Source: Patescibacteria group bacterium UBA4787
GTDB lineage: Bacteria > Patescibacteriota > Patescibacteriia > UBA2591 > UBA4787
Reading direction: 5' to 3'
NCBI GenBank assembly: GCA_002402995.1
Contig: DHGX01000001.1
Span: forward strand, 151,073-215,072
Length of the DNA stretch: 64,000 bases
Part shown: piece after piece, positions 37,727 to 64,000 of the stretch
How the letters are laid out: the number at the start of each line of letters is the position of its first letter
Numbering within the stretch: position 1 is the stretch's first letter
Made by a program: the position numbers and the translations under genes
Notes under the pieces: model-generated
Database searches by the model: none
The model's input: only the letters and a program-made list of their open reading frames with translations
What the model was told of the DNA's origin: nothing

Positions 37727-38635
37727 ATGAATATTTTAATTACCGGCGGTGCTGGTTTTGTGGGCCGCAATCTTTTGCGTGTAATGCGAGAAACGGGCAT
37801 TGAGATGTCAAAATTGACAGTCATTGATAAAGTAGAAGCGAACAATCTTTGCCAAAAATACGGCGCCAAATTTATTCAGGCCGATTTAGCCGAAAAGGGT
37901 ATGTGGGAAGAAAGTCTTAAGGATCAGGATGTTTTAGTAATTTTACATGCTCAGATTTCTTCGCCTAATAGCGCTGATTTTTATCGCAACAACGTGGAGG
38001 CCACTATAAATGCGGTGAACGCCGCTAAAAAAATTGGCCATCCTAAAATTATTCATTTTAGCTCTGCAGCCGTGCTTTCATCCAGACAAGACGATTATGC
38101 TAAAACAAAAAAGATTTCAGAAGAGATTGTTGAAAACAGCGGCTTGCCGTACGTTATTATTCGGCCATCAATTATGTATGGGCCGACCGATGATAAAAAT
38201 ATTGCCTGGTTGATGAATTTTATAAAAAAAATACCGATTTTTCCGATTCCTGGCAGCGGCAAATATCCCAGGCAACCTGTGTATATTGACGATGTTTGTC
38301 TGATGGTGGTTGAGCTAATTAAAAATTTTCCAGAAAAAAATAAAATTTACGGCATTAATGGCAAAAAACAAGTTTTTTTTCGAGATATAGTGAAATCTGT
38401 GATTAAAGAAATAGGGGGTTTGCGTTTCGTTATTTATTTGCCGGTTCCTTTGTATCTTTTTTTAGTAAAGATTTATAATGTTTTATTTCATTCGCCTTTC
38501 ACGCCGGATCAAATTCAGTCTTTGATTAACGGCGATGTTTTTCCTGATTACCCGTGGTGGGACGAGTTTGGCATCAAGGCAACTCCTTTTTCCGAAGGAA
38601 TCAAGAAAACCGTTCAAGCCGAAAAACGGCAGTAA
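37727..38635 (+). CDS. NAD-dependent epimerase/dehydratase (extended SDR)
   Basis: ILITGGAGFVGRNL is a Rossmann motif, and the catalytic YAKTK (YxxxK) is present. Confidence 0.7.
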   Translation: MNILITGGAGFVGRNLLRVMRETGIEMSKLTVIDKVEANNLCQKYGAKFIQADLAEKGMWEESLKDQDVLVILHAQISSPNSADFYRNNVEATINAVNAAKKIGHPKIIHFSSAAVLSSRQDDYAKTKKISEEIVENSGLPYVIIRPSIMYGPTDDKNIAWLMNFIKKIPIFPIPGSGKYPRQPVYIDDVCLMVVELIKNFPEKNKIYGINGKKQVFFRDIVKSVIKEIGGLRFVIYLPVPLYLFLVKIYNVLFHSPFTPDQIQSLINGDVFPDYPWWDEFGIKATPFSEGIKKTVQAEKRQ

Positions 38636-38651
38636 TTAAAATTATATTATT

Positions 38652-38696
38652 TAAAAACACTCCGTCTTTCATCAGGTCGGAGTGTTTTTATTTTTT
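38652..38696. terminator. bidirectional intrinsic terminator between the epimerase gene and the convergent Wzz-like gene
   Basis: A 12-bp stem aaaaacactccg/cggagtgttttt is followed by T8. Confidence 0.65.
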
Positions 38697-38773
38697 TCGG
38701 TTTTCGCGATGCGTGTTTTACGTTATAAGTTTTAAGTTCCAAGTTTTATGTTTTGACTTCTACTTTCCGCTTT

Positions 38774-39610
38774 CTATTTTCTACTTTCTTGTTTCTTGAT
38801 GTATTCCGTCAAAAAAGCGTAAAATAAGCCAACGAATAAGCCTATAATGGTGCCCCCAATAAAAATAAGAGGTTTATTGGGCTTAATGGGTATTATTGGC
38901 TCGAGGGTTGGCGAAGCAATAATAGTTTCTTTAGAGCCATAAGATAGTTCTCTCTTTTTGTTTAATAAAGATTGTTGAAAGATGCGTAAATTATTTTCTT
39001 CGACGCTCAGAGCATTTATATAGCTCTGGGCTAATAATCCTTCTGCCTCGGTTTTTGGATATTTTAATCGGCTTATTTCTTTTTGCAGTTCCACTGTCCG
39101 ATTTTCAGAAACTTTAACATTGTCTTCTATGTCTTTAATTTCTTGGTTAATCAATTTTTTTTCGCCAATTAATATTTCTTGATGTCGTTGAAGAACTAAA
39201 TCGGCCGTAACTTCAACAATTTCCTTGGCTCTCGCCGGCTGATTGTCTTTAGCGGAAATTTGTAAAAATTTTTCCGTCTGTTTATTCGCAATTATTCGTT
39301 TTAATGCTGGCCACGATTTCTCCGGCATATTTAGTTGTTGAGTCAATTTCCGTAAAACAGCCGGCTGTTCTAAAAATCCAATCACATCTTTGGGGGTTTC
39401 TAAATAAACACCCTTAATTTTGCCAATTTCCAATAAAGTAGTAGCTTGATAAACTTTTGGTAAAGAAAATCCGATAATAAGAGAAATTATTATTGCCAAT
39501 ATTACGACAGAAGAAATTGCTTTTTTTCTTTTCCATACAATACGAGCATAAGCACCTAGGTCAATTTCTAATTCCTCTTCATAGCAAGGATTGTTTTTTT
39601 GGTTTTCCAT
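38774..39610 (-). CDS. Wzz/PCP-like polysaccharide chain-length determinant protein
   Basis: An N-terminal TM with the Wzz-like IVWKRKKAISSVVILAIIISLIIGFSLPKVYQATTLLEI, a coiled-coil middle and a C-terminal TM are all present. Confidence 0.5.
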   Translation of the reverse strand: MENQKNNPCYEEELEIDLGAYARIVWKRKKAISSVVILAIIISLIIGFSLPKVYQATTLLEIGKIKGVYLETPKDVIGFLEQPAVLRKLTQQLNMPEKSWPALKRIIANKQTEKFLQISAKDNQPARAKEIVEVTADLVLQRHQEILIGEKKLINQEIKDIEDNVKVSENRTVELQKEISRLKYPKTEAEGLLAQSYINALSVEENNLRIFQQSLLNKKRELSYGSKETIIASPTLEPIIPIKPNKPLIFIGGTIIGLFVGLFYAFLTEYIKKQESRK

Positions 39611-39789
39611 GGTTAAATATTAAATAATATTTTAATTAAAAAGGCAGATTTATCTTATCTTATTTTATTTTACCAGTCAAATTTTTGTTATAGTGTTGCC
39701 AAGTGAGATATTGGTGTTAATATATATTAGACTCAGTCGGCCATGATGGCTCCAAAGTTAATATAAATTTAAGAAAAGAATATAAATTT

Positions 39790-40629
39790 ATGAATAAATT
39801 TGCGATTATCGGCACGGGCTTTATAATGCCCCGTCACGCGGAAGCGATTGATTTTATTAAGGGAAAAATTTTAGAAATCATTAATACTTCCGAAGGAGTG
39901 AATAATTGGAAAAAAATAATAAAAAACACGAAAGCAGATTATATTATTATTTTAACCCCAAACGACCTTCATTCTCCTATAAGTCTGGCGGCGCTTAAGC
40001 GCGGCAAGACGGTCTTATGCGAAAAGCCCCTCTGTCTTAACACCAAAGACGTTAAAATATTGGCTGAGTATAAAAATATTTTTACGGTTGTTCAGTTGAG
40101 GCATCATCTTTTAACGAAGAAATTAAAAAAAGAAATCAATTCTAGGAAATTTTATCAAATAGAAATGGATATCGCGGTACACCGAGATCCAAAATATTAT
40201 AAGTGTTGGAAGGGCCAAGAGAAGAGGTCGGGTGGAATTTTATTTAACCTTGGAATACATTATTTTGATATTTTAATCCATCTTTTCGGTGAACCGGAAG
40301 AGATATTAAATTCGAAATATAATAAAAAAGAAGCCTCAGGTATTTTAAAGGGCAAGAATTATGTTTGTCGTTGGCGTTTAACTACCGACGAACCTCATAA
40401 GACCCAACGTAGAGTTTTTAAGATCAATGGAGTCGGTTATAATTTTTCTTCGCAAGATAATTTATCGCACGAGAACCTGCATCGTTTTATTTATCAGGAT
40501 TTAATTCATAAAAAAGGAACAACTCCGCAAGAAGCCTTGAAGTCAATTGGCTTGATCGAAAATATTTATTATCAAGCCAACAAGAAAAAATATTCTAAAA
40601 ACAAAGATAGGGTTAAACGAACAAAATAA
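39790..40629 (+). CDS. Gfo/Idh/MocA-family sugar oxidoreductase
   Basis: FAIIGTGFIMPRHAEAI, the Rossmann fold and LCEKPL are family motifs. It is coupled to the aminotransferase by a TAATG overlap. Confidence 0.65.
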   Translation: MNKFAIIGTGFIMPRHAEAIDFIKGKILEIINTSEGVNNWKKIIKNTKADYIIILTPNDLHSPISLAALKRGKTVLCEKPLCLNTKDVKILAEYKNIFTVVQLRHHLLTKKLKKEINSRKFYQIEMDIAVHRDPKYYKCWKGQEKRSGGILFNLGIHYFDILIHLFGEPEEILNSKYNKKEASGILKGKNYVCRWRLTTDEPHKTQRRVFKINGVGYNFSSQDNLSHENLHRFIYQDLIHKKGTTPQEALKSIGLIENIYYQANKKKYSKNKDRVKRTK

Positions 40630-41816
40630 TGGAATTTTTAGATTTGAATAGACAGTATAGAATAATTAAGAAAGAGGTTAATCAAGCTATTCAGAAGGTT
40701 TTAGATAGCGGTCATTTTATTTTAGGCCCGGAAGTAGAAGAGTTAGAAGGGCAAATTGCTAAATATTGCGGTGTTAAATATGGGGTTGGTGTTAATTCCG
40801 GAACAGACGCCTTGTTATTATCCTTGATGGCTTTAGGTATAGGCAAGGGAGACGAGGTAATTACTACGCCATTTACTTTTATGGCTACGGCAGAAACCAT
40901 AGTTATGTGCGGCGCTCGGCCTATTTTTGTGGACATTGATTCAGCAACTTTTAATATTGATGTTGATAAAATTGAAGAAGTAATCACTAAAAAGACAAAA
41001 GCAATTATTCCTGTTCATCTCTATGGCCAACCAGCCGAAATGGACAAAATGATAAGAATCGCACGAAAATACAAATTGAGAATAATTGAAGATTGTGCTC
41101 AGGCTATCGGCGCTAAATATAAAAATAAAAAAGTCGGTTCAATGGGTGATCTGGGCTGTTTTTCCTTTTTCCCTTCTAAAAATTTAGGTGCTTGTGGTGA
41201 TGGCGGGATGGTGGCGACAAACAATAAAAAATTAGCCGAAAAAATCAGAATGTTGCGCGCCCATGGTTCAAGAAAAAAATATTATCACGAAATTATTGGT
41301 ACTAATAGTCGACTGAGCACCATTCAGGCAGCTATTCTATTGGTCAAATTAAAATATTTAGACGAATGGACTAAGGTTCGACAAAAAATAGCCAGGCATT
41401 ATAGTCGCTCGTTTGGTAAATTTATTAATCTAAGGGCTCCTTTTGTTGCGTCTAATCGCACCCATGTTTTTCATCAATACACCATAAGAGTAAATAAACA
41501 AAAAAGGGACAAGCTGATAGATTATTTAAAACAACAGGACATTCCGACTGCGATTTATTATCTCTTGCCGCTCCACTTACAACCATCTATGAAATTTTTG
41601 GGTTACAAAAAAGGCGATTTTCCCGTAGCCGAAAAGGCGGCCCGAGAAGTTTTGTCTTTACCGATCTATCCAGAATTAAATATTAATAAAGAACAAAATA
41701 GGATTATCAATACCATTAATAAGTTTATTATCAAGCAAGCGAGAGAAATGAAAAACAAAGTTTTTCATTTCCGAGCGGGCGCAGACAACACAGGGTTAAC
41801 ACCATTTATTAATTAG
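40629..41816 (+). CDS. DegT/DnrJ/EryC1/StrS-family PLP-dependent sugar aminotransferase
   Basis: GDEVITTPFTFMATAETIVMCGARPIFVDID and SFFPSKNLGACGDGG are present, the latter in the PLP-Lys region. The last 25 codons are contributed by repeat copy C. Confidence 0.8.
   Translation: MEFLDLNRQYRIIKKEVNQAIQKVLDSGHFILGPEVEELEGQIAKYCGVKYGVGVNSGTDALLLSLMALGIGKGDEVITTPFTFMATAETIVMCGARPIFVDIDSATFNIDVDKIEEVITKKTKAIIPVHLYGQPAEMDKMIRIARKYKLRIIEDCAQAIGAKYKNKKVGSMGDLGCFSFFPSKNLGACGDGGMVATNNKKLAEKIRMLRAHGSRKKYYHEIIGTNSRLSTIQAAILLVKLKYLDEWTKVRQKIARHYSRSFGKFINLRAPFVASNRTHVFHQYTIRVNKQKRDKLIDYLKQQDIPTAIYYLLPLHLQPSMKFLGYKKGDFPVAEKAAREVLSLPIYPELNINKEQNRIINTINKFIIKQAREMKNKVFHFRAGADNTGLTPFIN
41728..41803 (+). repeat. 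dispersed ~75-bp GC-box/palindrome repeat, copy C (the most diverged)
   Basis: tatcaagcaagcgagagaaatgaaaaacaaagtttttcatttccgagcgggcgcagacaacacagggttaacacc. It overlaps the 3' end of the aminotransferase CDS. Confidence 0.6.
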
Positions 41817-41836
41817 GATTTCATAAACTCATTTTT

Positions 41837-42577
41837 ATGTTTTCTGACCAAGCAAAAATTGATTATCGGTCTTATTATCAAAATAATCAGGTGAGTGTAG
41901 ACGACACAACCAGAGTTGGTCTGATGAAGCATATTTTAAGAATAATAAATTTTAAAAAATTAAAAAATAAGAATATTCTAGAGGTCGGTTTCGGTTCAGG
42001 ATTATTACTAAAAATGTTATCAAGAAGCTGTAATGAAATTACAGGGATTGATATCTCTAAAAAAAATATTGACGAACTGACGACGGTCTTAGTTAAGGAA
42101 AATTTGAGCCCCAAGTTGGTTCAAGGAGATATTTTAAACTTGCCTTTACTTGACGATATTTTCGACATTATTATTTGCGCCGAAGTATTAGAACATGTAA
42201 CAAATGTTAATAAAGCTATTCAAGAGTTAAAAAGAGTCACTAGGCCGGGTGGCATTATGGTTATATCTGTACCCAATGAAGAAATAATCAAATATGAATT
42301 TTGTGTTCATTGTCGCAACTTAACACCTCGGAATGGCCATCTAAATTCATTTAATAGAGAGGAATTTTCTAGTTTGTTGAACAGTTTGGGATTAAAAATC
42401 GAAAAAACAAAAATAATTTCTTCAAAGATTTATGCACTTTCATTCCTAAAGATTTTTTATTTTACGCCATTTTCTGTTATTATTGATATAATAGATCGAC
42501 TAATCTCCCGATATTTTCATATTTTCCCCCCATTATTAATTATTAAGATTCGCAAACCAGATTTTATCCAAGATTAA
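41837..42577 (+). CDS. class I SAM-dependent methyltransferase
   Basis: Motif I ILEVGFGSGLL is present, and ICAEVLEHV is the post-I/II region. Confidence 0.6.
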   Translation: MFSDQAKIDYRSYYQNNQVSVDDTTRVGLMKHILRIINFKKLKNKNILEVGFGSGLLLKMLSRSCNEITGIDISKKNIDELTTVLVKENLSPKLVQGDILNLPLLDDIFDIIICAEVLEHVTNVNKAIQELKRVTRPGGIMVISVPNEEIIKYEFCVHCRNLTPRNGHLNSFNREEFSSLLNSLGLKIEKTKIISSKIYALSFLKIFYFTPFSVIIDIIDRLISRYFHIFPPLLIIKIRKPDFIQD

Positions 42578-42584: not shown

Positions 42585-43685
42585 GTGCTTATGAAAAATA
42601 AAAAAATAAAAATAATTATTATCGTTGGCGCCCGGCCTAATTTTATTAAAATTGCCCCTCTTTTTAAATATTTTAAAAAATATTCTAAAAGGGTCATGCC
42701 GATTATAGTTCATACTGGCCAACACTATGATAATTTAATGTCGCGCGTTTTTTTCAAGGAGCTAAATATACCAAAACCAAAGTATGATTTGGGGGTTGGT
42801 TCTGGCCTCCATGGACAGCAGACGGGAAAAATATTAATAAAACTTGAAGGAGTATATTTAAAAGAAAATCCAGATTTGGTCGTAGTAGTCGGCGACGTGA
42901 ACTCAACTTTGGCTGGTGCTCTGGCGGCTGTTAAGATTCATATCCCCGTCGCTCACATTGAAGCAGGCGTTAGAAGTTATGATAAATCAATGCCTGAAGA
43001 AATTAATCGCATTGTTACTGATCGGGTGGCTGACATTTTATTGTGTCCAACACAAAACGCGGTCAGAAATTTAAAAAAAGAGGCTATTACAAAAGGTGTT
43101 TTTAATGTCGGCGATCTAAATTACGATTCATTTTTGAATAAACTACGGACGGCTCATCAAAAATCAAAAATTCTGAATGAATTAAGATTAGCGCCAAAGA
43201 AATATTATCTGCTGACCATTCATCGACCAGCCAACGTGGACAATCTGGATAATTTCAAAAATATTATCAAGACTATCGTTGATAGCCGAACGAACGTAGT
43301 GTTTCCCGTCCACCCGAGGACGAAGAAACAGCTGGAAAAGCTTAAGATTAAAGAATTTAAAAATTTAAAATTGATCGACCCAGTTGGTTATTTAGATATG
43401 TTAATTTTAGAAGAGAGCGCCTTAAAAATTATTACGGATTCCGGTGGAGTTCAAAAAGAAGCATATTTTTTAAAAACTCCATGCATTACTCTGAGGGATT
43501 GCACAGAGTGGACGGAAACAATGATCGGCGGATGGAATATTTTAGTCTGCCGCAACAATATACCCAAATTGCAGAAAATAATAAAAAGTCCTTGCCGTCC
43601 TAAAAAATATCAACGTTTTTTTGGAGACGGCCGAGCCGCAGAAAAAATTGTGAAGATTTTATCCAATTCGCGGAGATTTAGTTAA
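42585..43685 (+). CDS. wecB: UDP-N-acetylglucosamine 2-epimerase (non-hydrolysing)
   Basis: IIVGARPNFIKIAPL...HTGQHYD and ...HIEAGVRS are WecB/MnaA hallmarks. Confidence 0.8.
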   Translation: MLMKNKKIKIIIIVGARPNFIKIAPLFKYFKKYSKRVMPIIVHTGQHYDNLMSRVFFKELNIPKPKYDLGVGSGLHGQQTGKILIKLEGVYLKENPDLVVVVGDVNSTLAGALAAVKIHIPVAHIEAGVRSYDKSMPEEINRIVTDRVADILLCPTQNAVRNLKKEAITKGVFNVGDLNYDSFLNKLRTAHQKSKILNELRLAPKKYYLLTIHRPANVDNLDNFKNIIKTIVDSRTNVVFPVHPRTKKQLEKLKIKEFKNLKLIDPVGYLDMLILEESALKIITDSGGVQKEAYFLKTPCITLRDCTEWTETMIGGWNILVCRNNIPKLQKIIKSPCRPKKYQRFFGDGRAAEKIVKILSNSRRFS

Positions 43686-43717: not shown

Positions 43718-45049
43718 ATGACAAAAATTAAAATAAAAAAAGATACACTGCTGATTTTTTTGTCAATTATTTTTTATAAAATAATTCTTGACATATCTTA
43801 TTATTTTGTGGTTTCTCGGGCTTGGGACTATGCTGGATACGGCATTCAGGCCCTTTGGGACTACGTGGGTTATAATTTTATATTTAACAATGTAAAAATT
43901 TTTGAATCATATTTTCTCCTTTTAATTGTTTTGATATTTGTTCCTAAATCATCAAAAAAGCTTTCTAATATTATAACTTGGTTATTAGTATTGTTCGCCT
44001 ATATCCCCATGCTTACAATCTATGCCATGAAAGACGGCGCTAGATTATATATTTTGGCCATAACCTGTTTTTGGCTTATAGTTTTCCTTTTATTAAAATT
44101 TTTGCCGAACATCCACTTGCCATTCTTAAAAAAAACTCAAGCCAAGACAATTCATTATGCTATTTTTATTATTTTTAGTGGAATGGCGATCATCTCAATT
44201 TTAAAATATTTTGGTCTTGTTTTTAATTTAAACCTTAAGACGATATACGAAACCAGGACATTATTCTATGCCAATCTTCGTGGTCCTGCTATAGAATATT
44301 TGTTTAATTGGCTGGCCCTCGTTGTTAATCCTGTTTTTTTATTTATCTTTTTCAAAAAGAAAAAATGGCTTTTGTCTGTTTTGTCGCTAGCTATTCAGAT
44401 TCTTATTTTTTCTGCTACCGGCAATAAAATTTATCTTTTTGCTATACCTTATATAGTGTTTGTCGCTTTGTTGGTTAACCGTAGGCGTCCATTTGTTTGT
44501 GCTTCTTTAGTTCTTTCAATTGTTGTAGGGGTGGGGATATTGTCTTATTTTTTATTGGGAGATGTTTGGTTAACTGCTCTTTTTACTCACAGGACTTTAT
44601 TTACCCCAGCTCTGCTTTCTTTTCATTATTATGATTTTTTTTCACAAAACAATTTTATCTATTTATCATCGCAAAGAATTTTTAGAAATTTTATTAATTA
44701 TCCATACGATCTTGACCCGCCACATCTCATTAGCACGACGTATTTTAATCGTCCGCAAATGAGCTCTAATAACGGCATATTCGCCGATGCTTATATGAAT
44801 TTCGGTTTTTGGGGCTTAATTATTTGGGCTATTCTTTTGGCGATATTCTTGAAAGCAATAGATTCTTTTTCTAGGAATAAAGATAAACAGATTTGTTTAG
44901 TTGCTATAGGAATTTCCGTTATGCTTTTTACGAACATGCCGTTCTTAACATCGCTGATAACGGGGGGATTATTGTTGGGTTTGATCATCTTATATTTATT
45001 GCCACCATTAAATAACCAATCAACCAATATCCGACAACCGTATAATTGA
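43718..45049 (+). CDS. polytopic membrane protein, possible Wzy-like oligosaccharide polymerase/ligase
   Basis: It has about 10-12 TM helices and sits in a glycan locus. There is no sequence-level proof. Confidence 0.3.
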   Translation: MTKIKIKKDTLLIFLSIIFYKIILDISYYFVVSRAWDYAGYGIQALWDYVGYNFIFNNVKIFESYFLLLIVLIFVPKSSKKLSNIITWLLVLFAYIPMLTIYAMKDGARLYILAITCFWLIVFLLLKFLPNIHLPFLKKTQAKTIHYAIFIIFSGMAIISILKYFGLVFNLNLKTIYETRTLFYANLRGPAIEYLFNWLALVVNPVFLFIFFKKKKWLLSVLSLAIQILIFSATGNKIYLFAIPYIVFVALLVNRRRPFVCASLVLSIVVGVGILSYFLLGDVWLTALFTHRTLFTPALLSFHYYDFFSQNNFIYLSSQRIFRNFINYPYDLDPPHLISTTYFNRPQMSSNNGIFADAYMNFGFWGLIIWAILLAIFLKAIDSFSRNKDKQICLVAIGISVMLFTNMPFLTSLITGGLLLGLIILYLLPPLNNQSTNIRQPYN

Positions 45050-51968: not shown

Positions 51969-51994
51969 TTTTTAAAAATCTAAAAGAGGAGATA

Positions 51995-56113: not shown

Positions 56114-57100
56114 ATGTTTAAAAATAATAAAATTTCAGTAGTGATACCAGCCTACAACGAAGAAAAGTCAATTGCTTCGGTTATTTTAACCGTGCCGAGC
56201 TTCGTTGATCATGTCCTTGTAGTAAATGATGGGTCAACCGACCAAACAACTGAAATCGCCAAAGAGAGGGGGGCTATATTAATAAATCATGTAATCAACA
56301 AGGGGGTGGGAGCGGCCTTTCGTAGTGGCGTTAGAAAATCTTTGGAATTAAATTCAGATATCATGGTGAATATGGATGCCGACGGGCAATTTAATTCAGA
56401 GGACATTACTAAGCTTATTGAACCGATAATCGAAAAACGGGCTGATTTTGTCACTGCTTCAAGATTCAAGAATCCCGATTTTTATCCGCAAATGTCAAGA
56501 ATCAAATTTATAGGCAATAGGTTGATGTCCTGGTTAATTAGTAATTTGGTTGGTCAAAAATATTATGACGTTTCCTGCGGATTTAGGGCTTATTCAAAAG
56601 AGGCGCTATTGAGACTTAATTTATTCGGTGAATTTACTTATACCCAAGAAACATTTTTAGATTTGGCTTTTAAAGGGATGTCTATTGTTGAGGTCCCGGT
56701 TTTGGTCAGAGGAACAAGAGAATATGGCCAATCTAAAGTAGCTTCTAATTTATTTAATTATACATATCAGACCTTAAAAATTATATTGAGAACCCTAAGG
56801 GATTATAGAATTTTTAAAGTTTTTTCTTTTATCTCGTCATTTTTTCTTTTGATTGGTGTAGTTTTTGGATCATTTTCTCTTATTTATTATTTACGTTTCA
56901 ACTTTTTTTCTCCGTATAAATGGGTTGCCTTTGCCGCTGGTTTTTCCATCTTATTCTCGCTTTTAACCATAATGGCCGGCTTTATAATTGATATATTTTC
57001 CCGAATTAGATATAACCAAGAGGAGACTCTCTATCAAATTAAAAAAATAATTTTTTTAAAAAATAATCAAAGAGTAGATACCCCCGATTATAAATTATAA
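56114..57100 (+). CDS. GT2 polyprenol-phosphate glycosyltransferase with C-terminal TM helices (paralog of 49184..50131)
   Basis: ISVVIPAYNEEKSI...VVNDGSTDQT and ...NMDADGQ are present. Two C-terminal TM helices follow. Confidence 0.7.
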   Translation: MFKNNKISVVIPAYNEEKSIASVILTVPSFVDHVLVVNDGSTDQTTEIAKERGAILINHVINKGVGAAFRSGVRKSLELNSDIMVNMDADGQFNSEDITKLIEPIIEKRADFVTASRFKNPDFYPQMSRIKFIGNRLMSWLISNLVGQKYYDVSCGFRAYSKEALLRLNLFGEFTYTQETFLDLAFKGMSIVEVPVLVRGTREYGQSKVASNLFNYTYQTLKIILRTLRDYRIFKVFSFISSFFLLIGVVFGSFSLIYYLRFNFFSPYKWVAFAAGFSILFSLLTIMAGFIIDIFSRIRYNQEETLYQIKKIIFLKNNQRVDTPDYKL

Positions 57101-57101: not shown

Positions 57102-59399
57102 ATGATCCACGCCATTAAGATAAAACCACAAAGAATATCAGAAATTTTAGTATTTTTTTTGTTGATTGGTTTATATATTTATAATATAACTAAATATTTT
57201 TGGACATTGCCGACACCAAGCGATCCGCTTGAGTATTTAGGTTCGGCAGCCTGGGGGACTGCCTATGGATTCTGGCCCTTTCTCGCCCGCTTAGCTTTAG
57301 CCGTTAACCTAAGAATTTTCGTTCTATTGTTCTCCAAGGCCTATTTTGCGGGAATGTTCTATATCGGTTTTATCAACACCGCCATCTTAATTGTGGCCAT
57401 GCTTTGGGCTTTTAGAAAGTCAGGATTCTGGGCAGCTTTATTCGTCGGTATTTTCATGAACTCTTCTTATCTGATGCTCGGCTGGGCTACCTATATTTAT
57501 CCGGATCAAACCGTCGCCCTTTATTCGTTGTTGGCGTTTATTTGTTTCTTTTCGGAGTTTAAAATTTATCGTTTCATTAACGGGACTTTTCTGGCAGGTT
57601 TTTTTACTGGACTCGCCATACTTTCTAAGGCTACGGGTTTTGGTATATTGCTGTTTTTTGTTATATATCTTATTTATAAAAAAGAATGGAGGAAAATAAA
57701 ACAATTTGCTATTGGTCTGTTTATTGGACTGACCATTGTCGTGTTCTTGTTCTGTCTTTTGTATAATTACCAGTCTTTTTTAGATGCTTTTGTGGAATTT
57801 TTTTATGGTTCGCTAGGGCGTAATTTGGCAAAAATTTATACTAATTTAGGTGCAGGATATTTTCACGAGATCATTTCATCAATAAAATACTTTCCATTTG
57901 TCGCACTATTTATTTTAATCGGCGCTTATAAAAATCAGAAAACCAAGAATTTATTATTCTTGGCTTGGTTCAATATTTTTTTGGTTTATCTTTTAAGGTC
58001 TTCGGCACCTTCTATCCCAACCTATATTTATACTGCTTATATTTTTACTGTTTTAGGAGTATCTATCTATTTAGCCGATGTTTTTGTGTCGAAACAGAGC
58101 AATCGACCAATAGTCAATTTGTCAATTTTGCGTAAATACAGTTTTGTTTTATTTTTTATAATCGTGCTTATTTTAATGGTCGTTGGTCTGCGATTGGGCA
58201 TTAAATATCATTCCGTAGAAAATTATGACTATAGCTATAACTATTTGAAGCCGCTTGATATTTACGAAACAACTAGTTTCCCATACCCTAATATTATAAA
58301 AATATTATATACTTTTATACCCATTCTGCTTTTAGTTTGTTTATTGGGGATTGAGATTCTGAGGCGAAAGATCTTTATTGTTTTATTTATTATTTTGACT
58401 GCTTTCGGCTCCTCTTTTTTCAATGGCGGCCTTGCTTATCAAAAGGCGAAGTATGACAGAGAACGGGCAGATTTTTTCTATAGAACCGCCCCAATTTTAA
58501 ATTTAGTAAAAGACAAAACCTTTAGTGTTTACGTCGAAGCCTGGAACCAGCAATCTTATTCCAATCGGCTCTTGTGGGTCTATCGTTTATTTTTTGACAA
58601 TAAATATCAAAGAGTTTTCAAAGATCAATACAAAGCGCAAAAATTAAACGCCGACGAGATCGAAAGTAGTATAATTTATATAGACAAAGAAAACGATATT
58701 TTGTCAAAAGCCAAGAATGGACGAATCTTGACTGATCGTCCGGATATAGTCCATAAATATTTTCCTTCCGCCATAGAGGTACAGAGGTTGACAGAATTTA
58801 ATAATTTAAGAGATTTGGTCGTGCTTGATATTTCTTCACAGTATTCTATAAAGAAGACGGTTAAATTTTTATTCCAAGAAGATTTTTCAAAATGGCCGAA
58901 CGAGACTAAGAAATTTAGTTCCTCTGAAATAGAGAAAATTTTGCCCCCGCTTAAAATATTGGGTTTAAGGGGGAATCATTTCAAATTTTTGCGGCAAAAT
59001 TCAGGAGAAGATAATTATGTCAGGATTAATTTGAATAAAATAAATAACAGAGAAAAACCAGAAATTAATCTTGGTTATATTGTTAGCCTCCTAGAAATTT
59101 TAGAAAAAGACAAAAACCAACCATTATTTGTCACCCTTGAGGTGGTGGCACGAACTTCTGCTAATCAAAAGAATCAACCCCCCTTTATTTTTATTCAAGA
59201 CAAGGTTAATGAGGACTGGGATTTGACTAAGATTAATATGCCGGGAGATAGATGGGGAGAATACGTTGCAACTAAAAAATTAAGAGACGGCGCTAAAGAT
59301 TTTTTGGCTGGTATAGGATTTTTGCCAAGTTCCGTAGAGAGCTATTTAGACGTTAAAAGCATAAAAATATCCGTTTGGTCTGTGGCTGACAACAAATAA
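57102..59399 (+). CDS. large GT-C-fold membrane glycosyltransferase (ArnT/PMT-like) with a C-terminal extracytoplasmic domain of about 350 aa
   Basis: It has about 12 TM helices followed by a soluble domain. It is translationally coupled to the GT2 gene (TAAgATG). Confidence 0.4.
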   Translation: MIHAIKIKPQRISEILVFFLLIGLYIYNITKYFWTLPTPSDPLEYLGSAAWGTAYGFWPFLARLALAVNLRIFVLLFSKAYFAGMFYIGFINTAILIVAMLWAFRKSGFWAALFVGIFMNSSYLMLGWATYIYPDQTVALYSLLAFICFFSEFKIYRFINGTFLAGFFTGLAILSKATGFGILLFFVIYLIYKKEWRKIKQFAIGLFIGLTIVVFLFCLLYNYQSFLDAFVEFFYGSLGRNLAKIYTNLGAGYFHEIISSIKYFPFVALFILIGAYKNQKTKNLLFLAWFNIFLVYLLRSSAPSIPTYIYTAYIFTVLGVSIYLADVFVSKQSNRPIVNLSILRKYSFVLFFIIVLILMVVGLRLGIKYHSVENYDYSYNYLKPLDIYETTSFPYPNIIKILYTFIPILLLVCLLGIEILRRKIFIVLFIILTAFGSSFFNGGLAYQKAKYDRERADFFYRTAPILNLVKDKTFSVYVEAWNQQSYSNRLLWVYRLFFDNKYQRVFKDQYKAQKLNADEIESSIIYIDKENDILSKAKNGRILTDRPDIVHKYFPSAIEVQRLTEFNNLRDLVVLDISSQYSIKKTVKFLFQEDFSKWPNETKKFSSSEIEKILPPLKILGLRGNHFKFLRQNSGEDNYVRINLNKINNREKPEINLGYIVSLLEILEKDKNQPLFVTLEVVARTSANQKNQPPFIFIQDKVNEDWDLTKINMPGDRWGEYVATKKLRDGAKDFLAGIGFLPSSVESYLDVKSIKISVWSVADNK

Positions 59400-59463
59400 T
59401 TTAATTTAGTCAAACTCAGGAAATTTCTATTCATAATTTTGCGCGATTATCATAATATAAAAT

Positions 59464-60585
59464 ATGTCCAAAATTATTTCTTTTGTTTTTAATGATTTTA
59501 CTAACGACCTCAGAGTTTTAAAAGAAAACATTTCTTTAAAAAATGCTGGTTTTAAGATGACAGTAGTTGCGACTCTTGAATCGGGTTTAAAAAAGCTGGA
59601 ATTTGTCAAAGATTTAGAGGTGCATAGAATAAAAGTCAATTATATCAAAGCTTTGCCGATTCAACTATTTTTTTACTGGATAAAATGCATTGTAAAATAC
59701 AGAAAAGAGGCCATATTTCATTGCAACGATCTTTACGCCTTACCTATAGGCGTATTTATTAAAATATTTTTTAATAAAAAAGCTAAAGTGGTTTATGATT
59801 GTCATGAGTATGAAACCGAGGCTCATATTTATGATGGCAGGAAGTGGCTGAAAATAGCTGCTAAAATCTCCGAAAGATTGTTGATAAGATATTGCGACGA
59901 AGTTATTACTGTCAGTGAGTCGATTGCCAACGAATATCAAAGATTATATAAAATAAAAAAACCAACCTTAGTTCTGAATTGTCCGCGTTTTCAGAAATAC
60001 GAAAAAAAAGATTTATTTCGGCAGAAATTTGGAATAAAACCAGAGACAAAAATAGTTTTATTCCAAGGAGAATATAGAAAGGGAAGAGGGCTAGAAATTA
60101 TGATAGAGGCCTTCAAGAAATTAAATGATAAAAATTTGGCTTTAGTTTTTCTTGGTTATGGGGCTCTCACTAATTTTGTAAAACAAGAAACAATGTCGTC
60201 TTCTAATATATATGTGCACGAAACGGTTAGCCTCGACGTCTACATGGACTATATTTGTTCGGCCGATTTCGGAATTCATATTATGGAGAATACTTGTCTG
60301 AATCATTATTACGCTCTTCCGAACAAACTTTTTGAATATATTATGGCCGGACTGCCGGTGATTGTTTCTAATTTGTACGAAATGAAAAGATTTGTTGAAA
60401 AATATAACGTCGGCATAGTTTTGCATGAAAATAATGTTGCCTCGCTTCTGGAAGTTTTAAATAAAATTAACAGTCTTGATTTAACGATTGTTCGAGAGAA
60501 CACCCAAAAAGTCGCCCAAGTTTATAATTGGGGAAATCAAGAAATAACCCTGATTAATTTATATAAAAATTTAGTTCAAAAATAA
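59464..60585 (+). CDS. GT4 (group 1) glycosyltransferase
   Basis: The C-terminus EYIMAGLPVIVSNLYEMKRFVEKYNVGIV is the GT4 E-x7-E/acceptor-site region. Confidence 0.55.
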   Translation: MSKIISFVFNDFTNDLRVLKENISLKNAGFKMTVVATLESGLKKLEFVKDLEVHRIKVNYIKALPIQLFFYWIKCIVKYRKEAIFHCNDLYALPIGVFIKIFFNKKAKVVYDCHEYETEAHIYDGRKWLKIAAKISERLLIRYCDEVITVSESIANEYQRLYKIKKPTLVLNCPRFQKYEKKDLFRQKFGIKPETKIVLFQGEYRKGRGLEIMIEAFKKLNDKNLALVFLGYGALTNFVKQETMSSSNIYVHETVSLDVYMDYICSADFGIHIMENTCLNHYYALPNKLFEYIMAGLPVIVSNLYEMKRFVEKYNVGIVLHENNVASLLEVLNKINSLDLTIVRENTQKVAQVYNWGNQEITLINLYKNLVQK

Positions 60586-60623
60586 ATAATATCGGACAAA
60601 GAAGAGATTGTACGATCAATATA

Positions 60624-61526
60624 ATGACTGACGAAGTTTTGTTTAAAAATTACATCATACCCGAAATCCCGCGAGGGAAAAATTTTTTGATTTGGCTAAG
60701 CCACGACGTAGACAGGGTTCAAAAGACAATATTTCATTCTATCTATTATTTTTTTAAAGAAAGGAAATTCAGCCACTTGCAAGACATTTTTTCTAAAAAT
60801 AATCCTTATTGGAATTTCGATCGTATAATGGCGCTGGAAGGGCAATATAATGCCAAATCAACCTTTTTCTTTTTAAACGAAACAATGAAGGCTGATATTC
60901 TTCAACCTAAGTCGTATATTTTAGCGAAAGGAAGATATGATATTACCAGCCCGAAAATTAAACAGATAATCAAAGCCATTGATAAAAATGGCTGGGAAGT
61001 GGGCTTGCATGGTTCATATCAGTCTTTTTTAGATAAAGAGCTTCTAACGAGAGAAAAACGAACACTTGAAGAAGTGATTGGCCACGAAATAGGCGGCATT
61101 AGGCAGCATTATTGGAATAATGTTATTCCCAAAACCTGGGCGATTCAAAGATCGATCGGTTTAAAATATGACGCAACGTTCGCGACAAAAGATGATATTG
61201 GTTTTCGCGAAAATATTTATTATCCGTTTAGGCCATTTGATGACGATTTTTTGGTGATACCAACGGTTATCATGGAATATTATTTGTTTAATAAAGCTGA
61301 CGGAAATGTTGATGTGGCCAAGAAGATGATTAACGATCTTATTGATTTTTGTAAAAACAAGAGGGCCGTATTTTCGGTTTTATGGCATCCACATTTTATA
61401 AATCCTAAAGAATTTCCCGATCTTTATAATCTTTACGAATATTTATTAAAAAGAGCCAGCGAGGAAGGTGGCTATTTTATCACTCCAAAAAATTTATTAT
61501 CAAGCGAACGAGTGAAATGGAAATAA
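60624..61526 (+). CDS. ArnD-like polysaccharide deacetylase/deformylase family protein (paralog of 50128..50916)
   Basis: The protein has NFLIWLSHDVDRVQ...AKSTFFFLNE. Its last 9 codons and stop lie inside repeat copy D. Confidence 0.5.
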   Translation: MTDEVLFKNYIIPEIPRGKNFLIWLSHDVDRVQKTIFHSIYYFFKERKFSHLQDIFSKNNPYWNFDRIMALEGQYNAKSTFFFLNETMKADILQPKSYILAKGRYDITSPKIKQIIKAIDKNGWEVGLHGSYQSFLDKELLTREKRTLEEVIGHEIGGIRQHYWNNVIPKTWAIQRSIGLKYDATFATKDDIGFRENIYYPFRPFDDDFLVIPTVIMEYYLFNKADGNVDVAKKMINDLIDFCKNKRAVFSVLWHPHFINPKEFPDLYNLYEYLLKRASEEGGYFITPKNLLSSERVKWK

Positions 61527-61571
61527 AATTTCCATTTCCGAGCAAGCGCGGATAACACAGGGTTAATACCC
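61497..61571 (+). repeat. dispersed ~75-bp GC-box/palindrome repeat, copy D
   Basis: tatcaagcgaacgagtgaaatggaaataaaatttccatttccgagcaagcgcggataacacagggttaatacccc. It is nearly identical to copy B. Confidence 0.7.
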
Positions 61572-61594
61572 CTTATTAACTTCGAACAGATAAT

Positions 61595-62428
61595 ATGTCG
61601 GAAGAAATTAAAAAATATCATTGTTCTGTTTGCGACACAGACTCTTTGACTTTGTTGAAACATACAGGTGATGCTAAAATATATAAATGCCTAAAATGCG
61701 GATCTACGATTAAAACAACGTCTCCAGAAGAGGATCAGGTTCGTATTTCTACGGCCGATTATGTTAAACAAGAGCTCAGAGACGAATATTCTAGAAAGAG
61801 AAAAAATTATCATCAATATATTTATGATTTGATTTTTAAATTTTCTGGGAAAAGGCATGGCTCAGTTTTAGATATCGGGGCCAATTATGGCCAACTACTA
61901 GAAATTTTTCAAAAAAACGGATGGGAAACATTTGGTATAGAGCCAAATGTTAAATGTTTGACGCAAATGAAAGAAAATGACATAAGCGCCTATGCGCAGA
62001 TAGATGACTTGATGGATGATGAAAATTACCGCAATAAAGCTTTCGACGCCATTACTTTTATAGATGTTTTGTATTATATAGATGATCCTATCAAATTATT
62101 AACTAAGTGTTATAATATTCTAAAGCCGGGCGGAATTATTTTGTTACGCACCTATCACAGGTCATATTTATTATTTTTAAGATTTTTCTTTAAAAATATT
62201 GTAAATCTCGTATATGGTGATTCAAAAATAGATTTTAGTATTAAGGGTTTATTCTTATTGGGGCAGATTACTGGTTTCAAGAAAGACAATATCACTATTT
62301 TTAGCGAACCGGGTTATATAAGAAAAGAGGGTGGTTTGCGATTAATTTATGATATTTTTCGAATTTTTAGATTAAACAATATTTTGGGTCCCGGTATTAT
62401 TACAATCATGAAGAAGAGCAATTCTTAG
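61595..62428 (+). CDS. SAM-dependent methyltransferase with N-terminal Cys4 zinc ribbon
   Basis: The zinc ribbon CSVCDTDS...CLKCGST is followed by motif I VLDIGANYGQL. Confidence 0.55.
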   Translation: MSEEIKKYHCSVCDTDSLTLLKHTGDAKIYKCLKCGSTIKTTSPEEDQVRISTADYVKQELRDEYSRKRKNYHQYIYDLIFKFSGKRHGSVLDIGANYGQLLEIFQKNGWETFGIEPNVKCLTQMKENDISAYAQIDDLMDDENYRNKAFDAITFIDVLYYIDDPIKLLTKCYNILKPGGIILLRTYHRSYLLFLRFFFKNIVNLVYGDSKIDFSIKGLFLLGQITGFKKDNITIFSEPGYIRKEGGLRLIYDIFRIFRLNNILGPGIITIMKKSNS

Positions 62429-62442
62429 ATAAAATAAAATCA

Positions 62443-63018
62443 TTGTTTATGTACCTGATCAAAGGAAACTATCGTTTAAAAAAAATGGCCAAACTTGTTT
62501 CCTCGGCGAATAGAGTTTTGGATTTAGGCTGCATGCAACAGCCCAATGTTTATTTAAACAATAAGATGGTTATTGGGATGGATCTTAACAACGGAAAATT
62601 ACCACCGAATTATAAAGAATTAGTAGTGGGCGACGTTATGAATTTGCTTAGTTTTTTTGAAAAAGATTTTTTTGACGCTATTGTGGCCGGTGAGATTATC
62701 GAACACCTGGAAAGGCCAATTGATTTTTTAAGAAATTGCTACGAAATTATGAGCAGTGGTGGTCAATTGGTGATTTCTACGCCTAATCCTCATTCGATTT
62801 TCGAGTTTTTGTTAACTATTAATTTATCAAGAAAGTATTTTTATCATCCTGTTCACGTTTGTCTTTATCCTCAAAGATGGCTCATTAGAATGTTTGAAAG
62901 GGCCGGATTTAAAAATGTACAAGTTATAGCCGGTGGCACCGAGTTGCCAATTATTGGCACTGTGCCTTCCTCACGCCTTCTGTCAGGGTTTACAATCGTT
63001 AAAGGAGTAAAGCCATAA
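62443..63018 (+). CDS. class I SAM-dependent methyltransferase
   Basis: Motif I VLDLGC is present, and AGEIIEHL follows. A Methyltransf_11/23-like fold is apparent. Confidence 0.5.
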   Translation: MFMYLIKGNYRLKKMAKLVSSANRVLDLGCMQQPNVYLNNKMVIGMDLNNGKLPPNYKELVVGDVMNLLSFFEKDFFDAIVAGEIIEHLERPIDFLRNCYEIMSSGGQLVISTPNPHSIFEFLLTINLSRKYFYHPVHVCLYPQRWLIRMFERAGFKNVQVIAGGTELPIIGTVPSSRLLSGFTIVKGVKP

Positions 63019-63029
63019 ATTAAAATTAA

Positions 63030-64000
63030 ATGGACAAAAAATATATTTGGCAATATCTTTTTGCGGTTATACTTATTTTATTTTCTTTAATTTTTGTTCT
63101 TAAAAATAATAATTTTAAGGTGTTGTCGGGCGTATCGTTCTCCGATGTCTTTGTTTCTATTTTTATCGCCTTGGTTATATATTCCATTTCCGGCTTGCAA
63201 TATTTATTTTTATTAAGGAGATATGGCCAAACTAAATTGAATCTATCAGACATTTTTTTGCTGCCTATTGCCATGAATTTCTGGAGTTTCATTATTCCTT
63301 TTCAGGGAGCGCTACTGTATTCAACGGCCATATTGAAATTTAAATATAAAATAAAAATCGCCGAAAGCTTTTCTATAAATATTTATTCTTATTTGATAAC
63401 AATATTTATAGCTGGCCTCATTGGAATGTTTTTCGTGATTAGGGATAAAATGTTTTTCTCAACCATTTCTGCAATTTCTTTGTTGTTTGTTCTTAATCCG
63501 TTTATAATTTTTTTGCTGAATGCGTTATTCCAGCGTTGGCATATACGACAAAACAACATTCTGTTTAAAATCCAGCAATTTTTATTCGCTATTGTTTACA
63601 ATACGAAGCTGTTATACAAAGACTTGCGCACGACTTTAATTGTCGTGCTTATCAATATCGTTCATACTTTTTTAAGTGTAATTTGGTATTATTGGGTTAT
63701 CTCTATATTTAAAATCAACCTTTCTGCTATTTCAGTGATAATGTTGGCGTTATTGGCCAAAGTATCTCTTATTCTAAGACTAACTCCGGGTAATTTGGGG
63801 ATAGACCAATTGGCCTCTGGTGGCCTTATCGTTTTATTGGGTGGCAAGGCGGTTGATGGGGTTTTGGTCTCATTGTTTATTACTTTTACTACTATTTTAA
63901 TAGTTTTTTCTCTGGGAGTTTTGTCTACAATTTATAATATGAAATATTTCCAGGCGACTGATTTTAAATCCATAATTAAATCTTTGCTTAAGCGCACATA
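63030..64000 (+). CDS. flippase-like (UPF0104 / LPG-synthase-TM family) membrane protein, 3' partial
   Basis: The ATG at 63030 opens a reading frame that runs to the window end. This ORF is absent from the track because no stop lies in the window. It is polytopic and carries LTPGNLGIDQLASGG, which matches the PGGLGVRE family motif. Confidence 0.45.
   Translation, partial: MDKKYIWQYLFAVILILFSLIFVLKNNNFKVLSGVSFSDVFVSIFIALVIYSISGLQYLFLLRRYGQTKLNLSDIFLLPIAMNFWSFIIPFQGALLYSTAILKFKYKIKIAESFSINIYSYLITIFIAGLIGMFFVIRDKMFFSTISAISLLFVLNPFIIFLLNALFQRWHIRQNNILFKIQQFLFAIVYNTKLLYKDLRTTLIVVLINIVHTFLSVIWYYWVISIFKINLSAISVIMLALLAKVSLILRLTPGNLGIDQLASGGLIVLLGGKAVDGVLVSLFITFTTILIVFSLGVLSTIYNMKYFQATDFKSIIKSLLKRT

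Follow-up and report, generated by a model that had tools for sequence, protein, structure and literature searches.

A probable lineage-specific surface-glycan locus following recA in the Patescibacteria group bacterium UBA4787

A region of 64,000 nucleotides (nt) from contig DHGX01000001.1 of the Patescibacteria group bacterium UBA4787 (assembly GCA_002402995.1), referred to here as the window, was analysed with regard to the string of genes that begins immediately after recA and occupies positions 37727-64000. This part of the window contains 24 open reading frames (ORFs) of at least 180 amino acids (aa), of which 23 are on the plus strand and a single one, coding for a Wzz-like protein, is on the minus strand. 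The encoded proteins were assigned to families by Pfam and NCBIfam scans, which supported nearly all the families named in an initial annotation of this DNA, the assignment of the GT-C glycosyltransferase (GT) being provided by a structure model and that of a Wzy-like polymerase falling just under its cutoff. It appears fairly likely that these genes form a locus for a surface glycan, specific to the lineage and at least 26 kb long, which would combine tailoring of nucleotide sugars similar to that of the Wbp and Vim pathways, polymerisation by Wzy and Wzz, and decoration from the outside similar to that of the Arn pathway.

Genes of the string downstream of recA

The first gene after recA (37727..38635, on the plus strand as are all those below unless otherwise stated) encodes a NAD-dependent short-chain dehydrogenase/reductase (SDR) of the sugar epimerase/dehydratase family (302 aa; PF01370, 88.8 bits); its GC content of 0.384 is near the housekeeping value, and its product had no equivalog match. 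Further downstream, two adjacent genes joined by a TAATG junction encode a compact Gfo/Idh/MocA oxidoreductase similar to WbpB, GnnA and UDP-GlcNAc 3-dehydrogenase (39790..40629; PF01408 and PF02894) and a DegT/DnrJ/EryC1 sugar aminotransferase dependent on pyridoxal phosphate (PLP) and similar to WbpE, ArnB and PseC (40629..41816; PF01041, 443.7 bits). The former matched an archaeal UDP-GlcNAc 3-dehydrogenase (E 1.4e-7) and presents the N-terminal Rossmann motif IIGTGF and an EKP motif, and in the latter every equivalog match was below cutoff and the last ~30 codons run into a repeat element described below. The evidence for a WbpB/WbpE-type pair is thus at the family level only, with no equivalog match. 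A non-hydrolysing UDP-GlcNAc 2-epimerase of the WecB/WbpI type (42585..43685) was recognised by its specific model (TIGR00236, 316.5 bits for a cutoff of 210; PF02350, 340 bits), and a PaaK/CapK-like adenylate-forming enzyme (444 aa; 45059..46393) by matches to the DVU_1553 family and to PaaK, a weak match to CapK_C and a match to the phenylacetate-CoA ligase of PDB 4r1l (E 4e-22).

Two amidotransferases had been predicted in the string, and both are indeed of the WbuX type, but the larger one (675 aa; 46409..48436) is a two-domain fusion of an Ntn (class II) glutaminase and an N-acetyl-sugar amidotransferase (NASAT) of the WbuX/WbpG family, which is the acetamidino-forming family. Residues 1-250 constitute a GlmS/AsnB-type N-terminal domain (GATase_7 at residues 91-216) whose MCGIFG start includes the catalytic Cys2 of Ntn glutaminases, whereas residues 319-666 match TIGR03573; a match to the NASAT structure PDB 8wex (E 1.4e-12) and the motifs CTKC...GVCNYC and SGGRDS were also detected. 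A function as an AsnB/WbpS-type uronamide synthase was rejected for this protein, as its C-terminal domain is a NASAT (TIGR03573, tetracysteine) and there was no match to Asn_synthase. The smaller protein (362 aa; 54217..55305) is a stand-alone WbuX/WbpG-like NASAT (TIGR03573, 158.5 bits for a cutoff of 203; CSKC...GVCNYC and GSGGGRDS), and a repeat search revealed 71% DNA identity between its gene and the 3' part of the fusion gene. Both proteins match the motifs described for the NASAT family, a tetracysteine CxxC..GxCxxC and a PP-loop SGGxDS, in which the Pseudomonas enzyme WbpG converts a 3-N-acetyl into an acetamidino group (PMC10607449). At least 120 full-length homologues of the fusion, with 50-59% identity, were found in Paceibacterota, Marinimicrobia, Spirochaetota, Methanoperedens and others, under the public labels hypothetical, AsnB or GlmS, so that the fusion is likely misannotated widely, and a literature search found no description of it. 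HisH/HisF-like glutaminase/cyclase partners accompany NASATs in the wbuXYZ, wbpG-hisHF and MMP1081-1083 loci. In the window, neither class-I GATase nor HisF partners were matched, and an Ntn glutaminase is fused to one of the NASATs instead.

Two genes for CE4-like deacetylases (50128-50916 and 60624-61526) were absent from the earlier gene list. The product of the second (300 aa; 60624..61526) is a putative VimE-like divergent CE4 deacetylase, which matched the model NF053580, that of the UDP-2,3-diacetamido-2,3-dideoxy-glucuronate deacetylase VimE, with E 7e-17 and 61 bits (cutoff 440). It has 5639 representative homologues, and members of the family show weak Polysacc_deac_1 and WbmS-like matches. 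When this protein was compared to the 262-aa family encoded by the first gene, an hhalign probability of 93.8% and a BLASTP E of 0.08 were obtained, and the two CE4-like proteins appear to be related only at the profile level and not to be close paralogues.

Regarding polymer assembly, the gene on the minus strand (38774..39610) encodes a Wzz/TuaF-like chain-length co-polymerase (278 aa; PF02706, 39.6 bits for a gathering score of 25.5) with a match to TuaF (E 4.6e-9), a weak match to GNVR and two transmembrane (TM) segments, N- and C-terminal. A probable Wzy-type repeat-unit polymerase (443 aa; 43718..45049), with 12 predicted TM segments, scored 37.3 bits with TIGR04370 (cutoff 40), and a homologue 47% identical to it adjoins a Wzx gene in another locus (L089). 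A protein of the polysaccharide pyruvyl transferase family (478 aa; 52752..54188; PF04230, 134 bits) reached 69.6 bits with CsaB (TIGR03609; cutoff 213) and 52.8 bits, also below cutoff, with WcaK; SLH-domain proteins had no match among the scanned ORFs of the window. A GT4 (GT-B) enzyme (59464..60585; PF00534 and PF13439, with matches to WcaI and TuaC) is the only ordinary Leloir GT in the window, and a GT4 gene also follows the GT-C homologue in loci L088 and L089.

The two GT2 enzymes listed in the initial annotation both resemble ArnC and dolichol-phosphate-mannose synthase, which are lipid-phosphate sugar synthases. The first, GT2a (49184..50131; PF00535), a dolichol-phosphate-mannose-synthase/ArnC-like polyprenyl-phosphate sugar synthase, matched AglJ, PpgS and PgfS as well as PDB 5mlz (E 1.6e-12) and has C-terminal TM segments at 251-306. 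The second, GT2b (328 aa; 56114..57100), an ArnC/AglJ/PpgS-like polyprenyl-phosphate sugar synthase, scored 121.9 bits with AglJ and 96.8 bits with PpgS, matched the ArnC structure PDB 9hwj over residues 5-287 (E 3.4e-13) and also has C-terminal TM segments. In view of these nearest relatives and of the C-terminal TM helices, a role of GT2a and GT2b as ordinary repeat-unit transferases was rejected.

The gene that overlaps the end of GT2a (50128..50916) encodes a divergent CE4-fold (NodB-like) putative de-N-acetylase of 262 aa, assigned by its fold and motifs, for which no Pfam or NCBIfam model exists. At least 1774 homologues, 54-60% identical and usually stand-alone proteins of ~255 aa, were found, none of them with a Pfam match and all named hypothetical, in which HDxD, HExGYH, H133 and HPERW are invariant. 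Its AlphaFold (AF2) model (pLDDT 88) retrieved CE4 esterases and peptidoglycan deacetylases as top Foldseek matches. The next gene (50928..51968) encodes a FemAB/VimA-like protein of 346 aa, an acyl- or aminoacyl-transferase of the Acetyltransf_6 family (PF13480), with which it scored 34.7 bits and thus exceeded the gathering score; with TIGR03019 (pepcterm_femAB; cutoff 260) it reached 83.5 bits.

Downstream of GT2b, after a gap of 1 nt, lies the gene for the GT-C fold glycosyltransferase (765 aa; 57102..59399), identified from a weak PMT_2 match and its predicted structure, with ~12 TM segments and a C-terminal domain similar to carbohydrate-binding modules (CBMs). An AlphaFold model built from an alignment of 23 family members (pLDDT 82, pTM 0.76) had ArnT (5f15, E 4e-8) as the best Foldseek match and matched also EmbC, ALG12, AftD, AglB and Pmt4, its C-terminal 300 residues forming a beta-sandwich that resembles CBM22, CBM16 and CBM4. 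The first loop carries the motif SDPLxY, in which D41 is nearly invariant. The family is rare, with 24 homologues found and no Pfam model, and a look-up of the exact 765-aa protein returned no record. The string reaches the end of the window with the gene for an 8-TM membrane protein of family PF03706 (LPG_synthase_TM, 'flippase-like'; 323 aa; 63030..64000; 48.9 bits, above the gathering score), which falls 1 nt short of its full stop codon where the window ends and is complete in metagenome contig L001. No EamA/SMR-type (ArnE/F) flippase and no formyltransferase/decarboxylase (ArnA) was matched in the island, where the PF03706 protein is present.

Six methyltransferases (MT1-MT6) had been predicted, and all of them pass the Pfam gathering scores. 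Canonical forms of motif I were found in MT1 (246 aa; 41837..42577; Methyltransf_11, 86.8 bits; ILEVGFGSG), MT3 (267 aa from a GTG start that is uncertain; 51944..52747; Methyltransf_31, 81.5 bits; ILDIGCGCG) and MT4 (209 aa; 55361..55990; Methyltransf_23, 50.3 bits; ILEVGCGAG), and an FkbM-like form, VLDIGANYG, in MT5 (277 aa, with a Cys-rich N-terminal segment; 61595..62428; Methyltransf_23, 72 bits, and a weak FkbM match). The motif is partly degenerate in the short MT2 (180 aa; 48449..48991; Methyltransf_11, 52.7 bits; LLDIGCGMN) and degenerate in MT6, a short methyltransferase-fold protein (189-191 aa; 62443..63018; Methyltransf_23, 51.7 bits; VLDLGCMQQP). When the signature hh[DE]hGxGxG and the acidic residue ending strand 2 were used to check for binding of S-adenosylmethionine (SAM), at most one call, that of MT6 (GCMQQ), became doubtful. 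The enzyme families for methylation, amidino formation, pyruvylation and acyl or aminoacyl transfer, from which a highly decorated glycan had been proposed, are all encoded in the island.

A second, small glycan cluster, with a GC content of 0.33, lies on the minus strand at 20237-23881. It encodes a soluble GT2 of 241 aa, similar to DPM1, and two membrane proteins without a Pfam match, one of 555 aa with ~11 TM segments and the other of 432 aa with ~9. This cluster may represent another lipid-phosphate-sugar plus GT-C-type system.

Related loci, spacing, repeats and position

Homologues of the GT-C protein or of the glutaminase-NASAT fusion are found in other organisms in glycan clusters (L088-L093) that contain genes for GT-C, GT4, PF03706, the fusion, GT2s and Wzx. 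These clusters hold 2-5 methyltransferases in 14-22 kb, so that a high count is typical of such loci and the six of the island, considered unusual in the initial annotation, are not exceptional. Members of family PF03706 adjoin GT-C or glutaminase-NASAT homologues in L091, L092, L093 and L096, and in L091 PF03706 precedes the GT-C homologue, as it precedes a second GT-C here. The triad GT2/CE4-like/Acetyltransf_6, with 4-nt overlaps, is present in a contig from Sedimentisphaerales (Planctomycetota; L094/L095), whose GT2 and CE4-like proteins are 58-60% identical to those of the window (60% for GT2a). The same triad, with a CE4-like protein 59% identical, lies in a 6.5-Mb genome (L096) within 6 kb of a 46%-identical glutaminase-NASAT fusion; genes for PF03706, for three GT4s and for a fusion of WbpB and WbpD are also nearby. 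The similarity is therefore a mosaic, in which each comparison locus shares only some of the modules.

Most intergenic gaps in the string are of 4-70 nt, including some of 64-68 nt, and there are gaps of 192 nt (before GT2a) and 123 nt (before GT2b). Translational coupling had been proposed for many of the genes, but only two to three true overlaps were found, between the Gfo/Idh/MocA and DegT genes (TAATG), between GT2a and the CE4-like gene (ATGA, 4 nt) and possibly between the FemAB-like gene and MT3, depending on its GTG start. Transcription as one long operon was likewise not shown, as three larger gaps contain promoter-like sites (39696-39723, 49133-49160 and 56062-56089) and the string is interspersed with two copies of a hairpin repeat. 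Because this DNA is rich in AT, the scans for promoters and terminators carry much noise (76 promoter-like sites vs. 53 expected) and provide hints only; in the same noisy scan, no terminator-like intergenic site was found on the plus strand inside the gene string.

The core of the hairpin repeat, an intergenic element of ~90 nt, consists of TTATTATCAAGCGARCGAG, a hairpin and CCGAGCRRGCGCGGAYAACACAGGG, with compensatory changes in the stem between copies. The window holds five copies, at 36505-36589 (+), 61493-61577 (+), 41726-41810 (+), 18262-18339 (-) and 11900-11994 (+), and a partial copy at 40556-40589. The copies gave covariance-model matches of 107-115 bits and folding z-scores of -3 to -5, and the element was absent from the 29 related loci searched and had no Rfam match. 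The copy at 36505 (upstream of recA) shares 98% identity with that at 61493, recA and 21 genes of the island being enclosed between the two, and metagenome assemblies break at copies of this repeat. The 3' ends of the DegT and VimE-like ORFs read into repeat copies (41726-41816 and 61493-61526, respectively); the last ~10-30 codons of these ORFs may not be genuine protein, unless the ends of the two genes were the target of an insertion of the element.

Gaps and repeats could be taken as borders between two or three independent glycan modules joined by recombination, with different products and separate promoters: a Wbp/Wzy-type module at 38.7-48.9 kb, a GT2-CE4-FemAB module at 49.2-55.9 kb and a GT2-GT-C-GT4-VimE-like module from 56.1 kb. 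A composite origin of this kind is possible, although we consider it doubtful. It would be consistent with the promoter-like sites within the 192- and 123-nt gaps, with the repeats placed inside the string at 41726-41810 and 61493-61577, with the mosaic similarity, and with the fact that GT2a and the CE4-like protein are so similar to Planctomycetota proteins whereas the other island genes have no counterpart there. However, all genes from 39790 on are tightly packed on the same strand and not separated by any plus-strand intergenic terminator-like site, and the same modules recur together in distant organisms, which suggests that they work jointly.

The upstream half of the window carries rpoB, rpoC, ftsK, a RodZ-like gene, recA, gyrA, a gene for a class A penicillin-binding protein and genes similar to pilins of type IV secretion systems (T4SS). 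These last, three to four small T4SS-pilin/TrbC-like genes at 17111-19320 (+), of which three were confirmed by Pfam and the fourth is the ORF 18461-18826, have in common a segment of ~96 nt that is repeated among them with 63-86% identity, and a peptidoglycan-binding domain is present in one of them.

Among species-representative genomes, the best RecA matches were Patescibacteria, with identity up to 77%. The order rpoC-ftsK-rodZ-recA is kept in these relatives, and the genes downstream of recA are efp, an epmA-like one, ssb and rpsF (7-9 genomes), whereas in the window the island occupies the position directly after recA, where the relatives have the efp block. None of efp, the epmA-like gene, ssb and rpsF was found in the 64-kb window, and none of the 24 island proteins was found within 10 kb of recA in those relatives. 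The variability of the island, for which synteny had been suggested as a test, was therefore supported at the lineage level only, by its absence after recA in 7-9 distant Patescibacteria that include no genome of the same genus. The conserved block after recA also has an RNA/DNA methylase-like gene in related Patescibacteria (L009, L012, L013, L015, L019, L022, L046 and L074), and this block (efp, epmA-like, ssb, rpsF, methylase-like) is a useful landmark for the far border of the island.

The GC content of the coding sequences was lower in the island than in the housekeeping half, as compared at the suggestion of the initial annotation (0.340 vs. 0.391; at third codon positions, 0.322 vs. 0.358), but codon usage differed only mildly, the Jensen-Shannon (JS) divergence of 0.0158 being the same as the highest value obtained in controls that compared one half of the housekeeping genes with the other. 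No integrase was found in the island and no tRNA at its border with Pfam and Rfam, the Rfam scan detecting only two tRNAs, both far from the island. A classical mobile genomic island was rejected on account of the lack of integrase and border tRNA and of the mild codon bias. Because the post-recA arrangement of the relatives is interrupted here, the GC content is lower, and integrase and border tRNA are absent, the region has the character of a glycan locus that is specific to the lineage and set among conserved housekeeping genes, and not that of a mobile element.

The mild difference in codon usage and the absence of integrase and border tRNA could also be expected from a core, vertically inherited wall-polymer locus, whose position after recA would reflect a lineage-specific rearrangement and not a variable region, and the same could be said of the metagenome contigs from five samples, all of them 100% identical to parts of the window, and of a comparison set that held no same-genus genome. 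Nevertheless, the GC content is ~5 points lower across the whole region, the recA-efp-ssb-rpsF arrangement of the relatives is interrupted here, none of the island proteins is near recA in them, and some modules are highly identical to those of other phyla, all of which makes a core locus unlikely.

The claim that a surface-glycan island of ~26 kb runs past the window was borne out, with its 24 genes confirmed and a further gene following. Metagenome contigs identical to 57558-64000 continue beyond the window, with the PF03706 gene complete (323 aa) and then a further multi-TM gene (L001 6517-6858). A tract of 149 nt in the 5' part of this gene has 99.3% identity to positions 57279-57427, within the GT-C gene, whereas the N-termini of the two proteins differ. 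Therefore, the next gene is a GT-C paralogue, and the tract points to gene conversion or a duplication of recent date. It is within this tract that three independent assemblies end, and all assemblies break there or at a short repeat. A metagenome scan with the partial protein from beyond 64000, aimed at extending the sequence, gave no match, and a scan of the genome collection with the PF03706 protein found no relative. As to the island end and the priming transferase, whose search had been proposed, the island extends beyond 64000 and the window contains no priming transferase.

Proposed pathway and alternative readings

The families, motifs and folds of the gene products were observed, as were the order of the genes, the modules conserved elsewhere and the position of the locus; from these, we infer the substrates, the order of the steps, the acceptor and the final glycan as follows. 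WecB would make the manno configuration, whereas the Gfo/Idh/MocA and DegT enzymes would place an amino group at C-3 of a UDP-HexNAc to give a 2,3-diamino sugar. The two PP-loop NASATs would convert N-acetyl into acetamidino groups, with the fused Ntn glutaminase as the putative ammonia source for one of them. The VimE-like CE4 enzyme would remove an N-acetyl group, and the VimA/FemAB-like transferase could then acylate the amine thus freed, with an amino acid or a different acyl group and possibly with the help of the PaaK/CapK-like enzyme. The GT4, together with transferases not in the window, would build a lipid-linked unit, which would be O-methylated and pyruvylated and which the Wzy-like protein would polymerise under the control of the Wzz/TuaF-like protein.

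For the decoration of this polymer, GT2a and GT2b would load sugars on polyprenyl phosphate, and the product of GT2a would probably lose its N-acetyl group to the 262-aa CE4-like enzyme, whose gene is translationally coupled, before the FemAB-like enzyme acylates it again. The candidate flippase is the PF03706 protein, and the ArnT-like GT-C enzymes, the one in the window and the paralogue beyond it, would attach the sugars to the polymer, the acceptor being possibly held by the CBM-like domain. Such an Arn-like route fits because GT2a overlaps the CE4-like gene, GT2b abuts the GT-C gene, and PF03706 precedes the second GT-C, as it does the GT-C of L091. The final glycan is predicted to contain ManNAc and 2,3-diamino sugars carrying acetamidino, aminoacyl or acyl, O-methyl and pyruvate ketal groups.

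Several points weigh against this proposal. The glycan is a prediction from genes and modelled structures, and the relatives behind the synteny comparison are distant, with RecA at most 77% identical. Wzx (Polysacc_synt/MOP) had no match in any island ORF, although it may lie beyond 64000, as homologous loci have one; a priming phosphoglycosyltransferase (Bac_transf or MraY-like Glycos_transf_4), present in L091, L092 and L093, had no match in the window, and neither WbpA (UDPG_MGDP_dh) nor WbpD (Hexapep) was matched in the scanned window ORFs. Therefore, the polymer pathway has gaps as far as the window shows it, and the sugar can be called a uronic acid only tentatively. All specific (equivalog) models except that of WecB scored below their cutoffs (VimE 61/440, TIGR03019 83.5/260, CsaB 69.6/213, Wzy 37.3/40), the CE4-fold matches of the 262-aa protein are modest (TM 0.4-0.57, E 1e-4), proteins of family PF03706 are without a demonstrated role in flipping polyprenyl-phosphate sugars, and MT6, in view of its degenerate motif, may be inactive.

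It is rather improbable that the GT2s and the GT-C enzyme glycosylate pilins, S-layer or Ser/Thr-rich membrane proteins (cf. PgfS/PgfM, PMT/AglB) with a sugar made by the tailoring genes, for even if GT2a matches PgfS and AglJ, the GT-C model matches also Pmt4 and AglB, protein glycosylation by a GT2/GT-C system is documented for streptococci (PMC12041528), and the window holds an array of T4SS-pilin-like genes and a single Leloir GT, the Wzy-like and Wzz-like genes argue for a polymer, the beta-sandwich of the GT-C enzyme is CBM-like as in the glycan-acting EmbC and AftD, and its best structural match is ArnT and not an oligosaccharyltransferase, with no WWDxG-type motif in its sequence.

Taking the surface-glycan locus as the preferred reading, the system is of a known kind, found in an unusual host with an unusual mix of modules, namely a NASAT fused to a glutaminase, an unannotated family of CE4 fold that is coupled with an ArnC-like GT2 and a VimA-like transferase, and a GT-C of a rare type with a CBM. 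The locus is built partly from widespread, uncharacterised enzyme modules. The ArnC-like GT2, the CE4-fold enzyme, the VimA/FemAB-like transferase, the glutaminase-NASAT fusion and PF03706 are repeatedly found in company in Patescibacteria, in Planctomycetota and in further uncultured lineages, and homologues of the fusion alone are also present in Methanoperedens-type archaea. As a speculation to which we attach a low probability, these five elements, with the CBM-bearing GT-C in some loci, could constitute an undescribed pathway that edits an amino sugar on its lipid carrier by deacetylation, aminoacylation and amidination and installs the resulting cationic sugar on the cell surface from the outside. 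If this were true, by analogy with the linking sugar of the Vim pathway, the free amine could be an attachment point for surface proteins of the candidate phyla radiation (CPR).

Genomes of CPR/Patescibacteria are of ~1 Mb, and the cultivated members live attached to host cells; to our knowledge, almost nothing has been described about their surface chemistry. That more than 26 kb are spent on one decorated-glycan locus suggests that the surface glycan is important to the organism, for example in host contact or phage evasion. In addition, three families so far left as 'hypothetical' or misnamed, the glutaminase-NASAT fusion, the 255-aa CE4-fold family and the CBM-bearing GT-C, each gain a biochemical role that can be tested.

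Comparison with known systems

The closest described chemistry is that of the Wbp/Vim pathway, which makes the linking sugar of A-LPS in Porphyromonas gingivalis and Tannerella forsythia, and of the Wbp pathway of Pseudomonas aeruginosa O5. In the Wbp/Vim pathway, WbpB and WbpE add a 3-amino group that is acetylated by WbpD, the CE4 enzyme VimE removes the 2-N-acetyl group, and VimA then adds serine or glycine, VimF being a GT4; VimA belongs to TIGR03019, the family of the FemAB-like protein of the window (Veith et al. 2020, PMC7468200). Putative counterparts of the WbpB, WbpE, WbpI, WbpG (twice), VimE and VimA types are present in the window, where the GT4 gene also adjoins the VimE-like gene. 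Unlike the described pathway, the window is without WbpA and WbpD, and its matches are far below the equivalog cutoffs. One of its NASATs has a fused Ntn glutaminase in place of HisH/HisF-type partners, and a further CE4-like gene is present, in this case coupled to that of a synthase for lipid-phosphate sugars. The host differs as well, being a monoderm CPR bacterium without lipopolysaccharide (LPS) or a type IX secretion system (T9SS).

The decoration genes resemble those of the Arn pathway (PmrHFIJKLM; L-Ara4N on lipid A), a comparison that takes in the related three-component systems GtrA/B/C, PpgS/Rv3779, GacI/GacL and CsbB/YfhO. The Arn pathway comprises ArnB (DegT), ArnC (a GT2 acting on undecaprenyl phosphate), ArnD (a CE4 enzyme that de-N-acylates the sugar once it is linked to the lipid), a flippase and ArnT (GT-C). 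The window likewise has a DegT enzyme, an ArnC-like GT2 with a gene for a putative CE4-type de-N-acylase just downstream, a candidate flippase and an ArnT-like GT-C, and the order of GT2a and the CE4-fold gene, joined by their 4-nt overlap, is kept in two other organisms. In contrast to the Arn pathway, ArnA and ArnE/F are missing from the window, with PF03706 in the flippase position, a FemAB-like re-acylation step would be added, the GT-C enzyme has a CBM-like domain, and the acceptor cannot be lipid A.

With regard to Wzx/Wzy wall polymers of monoderms, such as the teichuronic acid of the tua operon of Bacillus subtilis and the ManNAc polymers that CsaB pyruvylates and to which SLH proteins are anchored, the window shares the TuaF-like Wzz, the Wzy-like protein, a TuaC/TuaH-like GT4, WecB for the supply of UDP-ManNAc and a PF04230 pyruvyl transferase. 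It differs from them in the absence from the window of Wzx, a primer, a UDP-sugar dehydrogenase, an LCP ligase and an SLH protein, and in a CsaB score well below the cutoff.

Finally, both NASATs of the window share with the members of their family (WbuX, WbpG, PseA and LpNASAT, PDB 8WEX) the tetracysteine Zn motif, the SGGxDS PP-loop and a full-domain match to TIGR03573. Unlike those four proteins, the 675-aa protein has an N-terminal AsnB/GlmS-type Ntn glutaminase, which gives it an architecture like that of asparagine synthetases.

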